From Escherichia coli (GTDB lineage Bacteria; Pseudomonadota; Gammaproteobacteria; Enterobacterales; Enterobacteriaceae), in NCBI RefSeq assembly GCF_003334305.1, contig NZ_QOWS01000088.1: a stretch of 233 bases of DNA; one strand, 5' to 3'. A program made the translations under genes and the position numbers. Below are positions 1 to 233 of the stretch, piece by piece; the stretch's first letter is position 1, and each line of letters begins with the position of its first letter. The notes under the pieces were generated by a model that was not told the origin of the DNA, made no database searches, and was given only the letters and a program-made list of their open reading frames with translations.

Positions 1-12
1 CCGGATATCCGG
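1..12. repeat. Perfect 12-bp palindrome CCGGATATCCGG (central GATATC flanked by CCGG on each side)
   Basis: Read directly: positions 1-12 are identical to their own reverse complement. It abuts the window edge, so any extension of the symmetry upstream cannot be assessed. Within frame +1 it encodes P-D-I-R. Confidence 0.9.
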
Positions 13-233
13 TTAAGCCCGCATCTTTACCTGGCGACCAACAGCGCACAGGGGCCGTGGTGGATACTGGGGTGGTCAGAGCGGGTGCCGGGTGCTGAGG
101 ACGTACTGCCAGCGCCGCTGCCGCCGTACCGGGTGCTTACCGGGCTGGCAGACCGTTTCGGGCGGACGCTGACTTTCCACCGGGCAGCTAAGGGTGACGT
201 GGCGGGCGCGGTGACGGGGGTGACGGACGGCGC
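1..233 (+). CDS. Internal fragment of a protein-coding gene (frame +1, partial at both ends); hypothetical protein of unknown function
   Basis: Frame +1 (codons at 1-3, 4-6, ...) has no stop codon across all 77 complete codons, whereas frames +2 (TAA 14-16, TGA 170-172), +3 (TGA 96-98, TAA 189-191) and all three reverse frames contain stops. Hand-counted positional GC is about 73% (pos 1), 57% (pos 2), 77% (pos 3), the GC3>GC1>GC2 pattern expected of a real gene, with G enriched at codon position 1 (31 of 77). Amino-acid composition is varied (W, Y, F, H, K, D, E present), unlike the Ser/Pro/Thr/Ala-rich antisense translation. No ATG occurs anywhere on the + strand and no terminal stop is present, so both gene ends lie outside the window. 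At this GC content an open 77-codon frame arises by chance about one time in five, so confidence is moderate. Confidence 0.55.
82..95 (+). repeat. Perfect tandem direct repeat of the heptamer CGGGTGC (2 copies)
   Basis: Read directly: 82-88 CGGGTGC and 89-95 CGGGTGC. The overlapping 9-mer CCGGGTGCT (88-96) recurs at 129-137 in a different reading-frame phase, so the repetition is at DNA level rather than protein level. Confidence 0.85.
193..231 (+). repeat. Short-period coding repeat: GGTGACG motif three times (193-199, 210-216, 219-225) encoding G-x-x-x-G-x-x-x-G-x-x-x-G
   Basis: Read directly: GGTGACG occurs at 193-199, 210-216 and 219-225; 211-219 (GTGACGGGG) and 220-228 (GTGACGGAC) form an imperfect in-frame 9-bp tandem (7 of 9 identical). 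In frame +1, glycine falls at codons 65, 69, 73 and 77 (193-195, 205-207, 217-219, 229-231), giving GDVAGAVTGVTDG with Gly every fourth residue. The pattern runs to the end of the window. Confidence 0.5.

Follow-up and report, generated by a model that had tools for sequence, protein, structure and literature searches.

Introduction

A window of 233 bases from Escherichia coli (the whole stretch of DNA that was analysed) encodes the octapeptide Gly-Pro-Trp-Trp-Ile-Leu-Gly-Trp. The question that it raises is what a cluster of three tryptophans within eight residues is for. An earlier note on this DNA had offered three options: a segment at a membrane interface, a surface that binds carbohydrate or another ligand, or a hydrophobic core in a small domain. 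The reading preferred here, to which a probability of about 78% is given, is that GPWWILGW has a structural role in a type VI secretion Rhs effector, as part of the first hairpin of the shell of the protein.

The degree of clustering was estimated by shuffling. All three tryptophans of the 77-residue fragment fell inside one eight-residue stretch in 2.1% of shuffles of the fragment, and likewise in 2.1% when the nucleotides of the window were shuffled. For the whole protein (24 tryptophans in 1417 residues) at least one such cluster occurred somewhere in 11% of shuffles. The clustering is real and its composition only mildly unusual. A literature search with the peptide string returned spurious matches only, in which the peptide is not mentioned.

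Gene, reading frame and locus

The window is identical (100%) to bases 2341256-2341488 of NZ_CP028767.1 from E. coli strain A7 and lies inside the coding sequence of WP_240770959.1, a protein of 1417 residues annotated as 'RHS element core protein'. Codon 164 begins at window base 1, which places the motif at residues 181-188 of the annotated frame. The window (1-233, + strand) is an internal piece of this Rhs core coding sequence comprising codons 164-240 and two further bases in frame +1, and the NCBIfam RHS_core model covers residues 1-1257 of the product. The motif, G181-P-W-W-I-L-G-W188, occupies bases 52-75 (GGGCCGTGGTGGATACTGGGGTGG, translated as GPWWILGW in frame +1); like it, the features located below by window bases are on the + strand.

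Frame +1 is the sole frame open over all 233 bases, the open reading frames in other frames being short (26 and 34 codons). The peptide is preserved in diverged homologues through synonymous changes (GGG/GGA for Gly, TCA/AGT for Ser, GAG/GAA, CGG/CGT and GTG/GTT). Homologues P0059 and P0072 keep the peptide by synonymous codons in this way and also keep vgrG or other type VI secretion system (T6SS) neighbours, which together indicate that frame +1 is translated and under purifying selection. The Trp-rich peptide at bases 52-75 and its translation in this frame, both proposed in the earlier note, are thus borne out.

The locus is ordered yncH - vgrG - rhs - dsORF-h1 - ISAs1 pseudogene - pptA, with vgrG directly upstream of rhs and dsORF-h1 downstream. 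The same layout was found at homologue loci, with vgrG upstream in three of them (L002, L004 and L005) and TssF/G/ImpA nearby in another (L003). The GC content is 69% in the window, 60.5% in the rhs gene (L001:7512-11765) and 51% in the 16-kb locus; a high GC content such as that of window and gene is a long-known hallmark of E. coli Rhs cores. A search of both strands of the window against Rfam (E up to 1) gave no RNA family match, and DNA repeats in the window were limited to a direct repeat of 12 nt in two copies and an imperfect inverted repeat of 13 nt, both compatible with chance in GC-rich coding DNA.

The two parts of the window differ in how widely they occur. Bases 1-170 are matched at 99% identity or more in 972 E. 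coli records, and of 5426 complete genomes of the species about 3500 match them at 95% or more; bases 171-233 are matched at 99% or more in 211 records. An approximate junction of two Rhs core lineages was placed at bases 170-176 (no strand assigned), on either side of which the match counts differ. Among the matches listed, a single record (strain A7) agrees with the whole window at 100%, the next full-length matches being at 90%. The protein sequence first departs from that of the common lineage at F222 (bases 175-177), where TLT is followed by FHRAAKGDVAGAV rather than by the common YRREAAGDLAGEI. The window is a mosaic of the two lineages, a pattern consistent with recombination between rhs copies.

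Overall architecture of the protein

The protein is a T6SS Rhs effector by its RHS_core match, its YD repeats and predicted cocoon fold, its DUF6531 plug, its Rhs-associated core with both putative catalytic aspartates and its linkage to vgrG. It belongs to a known, annotated and structurally characterised family, whose curated model includes the motif. NF041261 (RHS_core), a curated equivalog with a cut-off of 2000 bits, matched at 2675.8 bits, residues 1-1257 aligning with model positions 1-1261. The end-to-end model match, the high-GC core and GPWWILGW itself are common to the E. coli Rhs element core proteins (RhsA-E type), as is the locus layout vgrG-rhs-small ORF-ISAs1 (H-rpt) at yncH/pptA. 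The A7 allele differs from them in being a mosaic of two core lineages and in having its own C-terminal tip with HEFAH.

Domains were mapped along the chain. For a PAAR-like domain, which would serve in loading onto VgrG, the Pfam PAAR_motif gave a weak match to residues 3-20 only (E = 0.11). P48-V-N-P, a putative cleavage-site region before the plug, aligns with P48 of Tse5. The N-terminal plug corresponds to DUF6531 (PF20148) at residues 46-123 (E = 8.9e-19), and YD/RHS repeats follow, with Pfam RHS_repeat matches from residue 325 and TIGR01643 in six stretches. Residues 124-324, which include the motif, are without any Pfam family. The Rhs-associated core (TIGR03696) was found at residues 1180-1257, after which comes a variable tip of 160 residues.

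The expected autoprotease pattern is DPxG x18-19 DPxG. Putative autoprotease motifs were located at L001:11202-11282 (residues 1231-1257) as DPIGL(1231)...x18...DSLGL, with both aspartates present; the second motif reads DSLG where DPxG is usual (P to S). The C-terminal tip (L001:11294-11762, residues 1258-1417) contains HEFAH (HExxH) and gave a weak match to Pfam Peptidase_M91 (E = 0.002), a family of NleD-like zinc protease effectors. The HEFAH sequence suggests that the tip may be a metalloprotease toxin.

An AlphaFold2 model was calculated for residues 1-1200 with an alignment input of only 48 homologues (mean pLDDT 86.5, pTM 0.79; pLDDT below 50 for the N-terminal 32 residues). The modelled chain is a closed β-spiral cocoon. 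Its best Foldseek match was Tse5 (8cp6_B, E = 4e-88, TMt 0.85), with further matches to the Advenella VgrG-Rhs structure (8qja, 0.85) and RhsA (7q97, 0.83).

The first shell hairpin

The window encodes the first turn of the YD-repeat shell, directly after the N-terminal plug. The plug of Tse5 spans residues 48-124 and is followed by the barrel, with a surface helical protrusion at 141-167 that is absent from RhsA and Rhs1 (PMC10684867). The model has short helices in the same place as this protrusion, at residues 156-159 and 164-167. Past the DUF6531 plug and the short helical protrusion (~141-167), the wall of the shell has its first well-defined hairpin, and the motif is modelled as the second strand of this hairpin.

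The first strand of this predicted hairpin is Y173-T176 (YLAT, bases 28-39; DSSP E at 173-176), for which the block 171-180 has a pLDDT of 91 and residues 173-175 of which are hydrophobic in distant relatives. The turn, N177-P182 (NSAQGP, bases 40-57), takes in G181-P182 and is modelled with no secondary structure at 177-182. The second strand is W183-G187 (WWILG, bases 58-72; DSSP E at 183-187; pLDDT 88 for block 181-190). After it comes a variable Pro-rich loop, S189-P205 (SERVPGAEDVLPAPLPP, bases 76-126), modelled with no secondary structure (pLDDT 60 for block 191-200) and differing widely in length among homologues.

The chain then enters a degenerate YD-type hairpin (bases 127-183) consisting of strand Y206-A213, the turn D214-R-F-G-R218 (DxxGR) and strand T219-R224 (DSSP E at 206-213 and 219-224). 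A DxxGR sequence also forms a hairpin turn in Tse5 (PMC10684867), and of 28 distant relatives 27 retain D214, all retain G217 and 22 retain R218. The start of the next YD-type hairpin (bases 211-233) is strand A234-T238 (bases 211-225; DSSP E at 234-238), followed by D239-G-A-G-R243, which extends beyond the window end and of which D239, G242 and R243 are invariant in the alignment of 48 homologues.

Comparison with related structures

The best match in both sequence and fold is Tse5 (PA2684) from Pseudomonas aeruginosa (PDB entry 8CP6). The two proteins have in common a short N-terminus, putatively PAAR-like in the E. coli protein, the P48-V-N-P plug start, a DUF6531 plug at ~48-124 and a helical protrusion at ~141-167. 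Searches of the PDB with a single sequence (the whole protein or residues 123-262) left the motif unaligned, the Tse5 alignments ending at residue 169 and restarting at 225 or 294, and it took a profile built from 48 homologues to extend the alignment across this region. This profile aligns continuously with Tse5 from P48 onwards and puts W184 on L178 and L186 on F180, in the part of the Tse5 wall that comes after the plug. Residues ~166-182 of Tse5 are thus the counterpart of the motif-bearing hairpin, with S-Y-L-H-F in Tse5 against P-W-W-I-L in E. coli. The E. coli protein also differs from Tse5 in its longer Pro-rich loop after the strand, in a helix and disordered insert at ~253-289 and in its toxin domain. 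The insert (L001:8268-8378, residues 253-289) is predicted as a helix at 253-267 followed by a Ser/Ala/Pro-rich segment at 268-289 with a pLDDT below 50.

RhsA from Pseudomonas protegens (7Q97) and Rhs1 from Photorhabdus laumondii (7PQ5) have the cocoon fold in common with the model (TMt 0.83 and 0.76, respectively), together with a cork-like plug and a C-terminal aspartyl autoprotease, putative in the E. coli protein; they differ in their N-terminal region, which is long and of the prePAAR/TMD/PAAR kind. Positions 151-276 are left out when the profile is aligned with RhsA, the motif hairpin having no detectable sequence counterpart there, which makes the hairpin a feature of the Tse5/E. coli-type subfamily and not of all Rhs proteins. 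The cocoons of the Tc toxins (TcB/TcC) and the YD shells of teneurins likewise consist of a YD-repeat spiral β-sheet, with no similarity at the motif; their N-terminal closure differs, being a β-propeller or FN-plug (PMC8765631).

Sequence conservation

Conservation was assessed among enterobacterial Rhs cores and in a distant set of 28 relatives with less than 50% identity over the N-terminal region. The enterobacterial cores (E. coli, Shigella, Salmonella bongori, Enterobacter and Citrobacter) keep GPWW[IL]L[GS]W, and the full octamer is restricted to Rhs cores of this type. W184 (bases 61-63) is the family-wide anchor: the residue is Trp in 25 of the 28 distant relatives (Tyr in two and Ser in one) and in 109 of the 122 matches covering the site, and it is the sole position between residues 146 and 208 that is at least 80% conserved.

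The neighbouring positions behave differently. G181 and P182 are each kept in six of the 28. Position 183 is Leu, Trp, Ala, Phe, Val, Ile or Tyr, with Trp in only five; position 185 is mostly Val, Leu or Ile; position 186 is Phe in 22, Leu in five and Tyr in one; and position 188 is never Trp (0/28), with Pro in 13. Other conserved positions nearby are W140 (24/28), residue 159 (Trp in 20 and Phe in seven) and L209 (25/28). By this alignment the triple-Trp cluster is one conserved anchor, W184, and two lineage-specific aromatics, W183 and W188. As lineage-specific substitutions, the latter two argue that the three-Trp cluster as such has no separate function.

Conservation among homologues, on which the earlier note had made its proposal depend, therefore holds family-wide for W184 and F/L186 and fails for the full octamer, which is confined to the enterobacterial type. 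The note had further held the motif to be the best anchor for recognising the family. That role belongs instead to DUF6531, the RHS/YD repeats and the RHS_core model; no Pfam family lies over the motif, the alignment with P. protegens RhsA passes it by and Tse5 has S-Y-L-H-F in its place.

Proposed structural role

Side-chain orientation, burial and the contacts of the three tryptophans were deduced from strand periodicity and conservation. In the model W183-G187 form the strand, after a turn that G181-P182 close. The side chains of W184, L186 and W188 would point to one side of it and those of W183 and I185 to the opposite side, and each side is hydrophobic. W184 and F/L186 would constitute the conserved face, which probably packs with W140, W/F159 and L209. 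The small hydrophobic core so formed may hold the first shell turn and the protrusion beside the plug-closed N-terminal aperture. Such packing fits the interface between plug and shell in RhsA, which is described as mainly hydrophobic (PMC8765631). A counterpoint to this structural role is that Tse5, which alone among close relatives has a solved structure, lacks Trp at the motif positions, so that the solved structure is uninformative on a role specific to Trp.

Of the three options first raised, the hydrophobic core of a small domain comes closest, the motif being a predicted strand that is hydrophobic on both faces. A transmembrane segment is excluded by hydropathy: the Kyte-Doolittle mean over 19 residues does not exceed 0.03 in any stretch overlapping the motif (the maximum for the whole protein is 0.87). 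Nothing in the analysis supports a ligand- or membrane-binding role for the motif.

Alternative readings

[quoted passage not shown] This is unlikely. The Wimley-White interfacial energy of the octamer, -5.95 kcal/mol, is the most favourable in the whole protein and would fit such a patch if the residues were not buried. The toxin-free shell of Tse5 adsorbs to lipid bilayers and its N-terminal fragment is without a membrane-binding module (PMC10684867); the N-terminus here is equally short, its PAAR-like match being limited to residues 3-20. Against this, the membrane-contact regions proposed for Tse5 lie elsewhere (670, 676-680, 873-914 and 1031-1062; PMC10684867), and Tse5 reads S-Y-L-H-F at the motif site. 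W183 and W188 are unconserved (Trp in 5/28 and 0/28 distant relatives, respectively), the strand is hydrophobic on both faces and the model shows a regular hairpin here with good confidence. A narrower form, in which W183, W184 and W188 of Rhs effectors of the enterobacterial type are partly exposed beside the N-terminal aperture and act as an interfacial anchor that orients the plug end on the target inner membrane, where the toxin would exit, is judged quite improbable.

Contact with another protein of the system, for example the cognate VgrG or the product of the small downstream ORF, is very unlikely to be what the motif provides. Both genes flank rhs, also in distant homologues, and the full octamer is clade-specific, as a co-evolving interface might be; in solved Rhs/VgrG systems, however, VgrG is contacted by the PAAR or N-terminal region and not by the shell wall (PMC8765631). 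The motif is, moreover, identical across alleles with different C-terminal toxins and downstream ORFs (dsORF-h1 in L001, ydcD in L002), which argues against an immunity-specific contact.

Several short database entries (P0044, P0047 and P0054) read window bases 52-90 in frame +2 (GRGGYWGGQSG) and resemble frameshifted or pseudogene ORF calls from rhs fragments. That the region is untranslated in frame +1 and the peptide an artefact of GC-rich sequence, for which these entries and the 69% GC of the window might be cited, is refuted by the sole open frame, by the synonymous substitutions that keep the peptide and by the 1417-codon ORF, which matches the RHS_core equivalog end to end and whose product is predicted to fold into an Rhs cocoon, the frame +2 entries being short fragments consistent with frameshifted calls.

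Conclusions

The motif is an ordinary part of the Rhs polymorphic toxins that the type VI secretion system delivers, a family that is annotated and curated and whose structure is understood. What has been gained is a proper description of the motif: one conserved anchor, W184 (with F/L186), in the first shell hairpin, outside Pfam coverage. The pair W184/F-L186 could guide alignments of the weakly conserved stretch from the plug to the first canonical YD repeat in Rhs proteins of the Tse5/E. coli type, and W184 offers itself for simple mutagenesis aimed at how the plug end holds the first shell turn and the protrusion.
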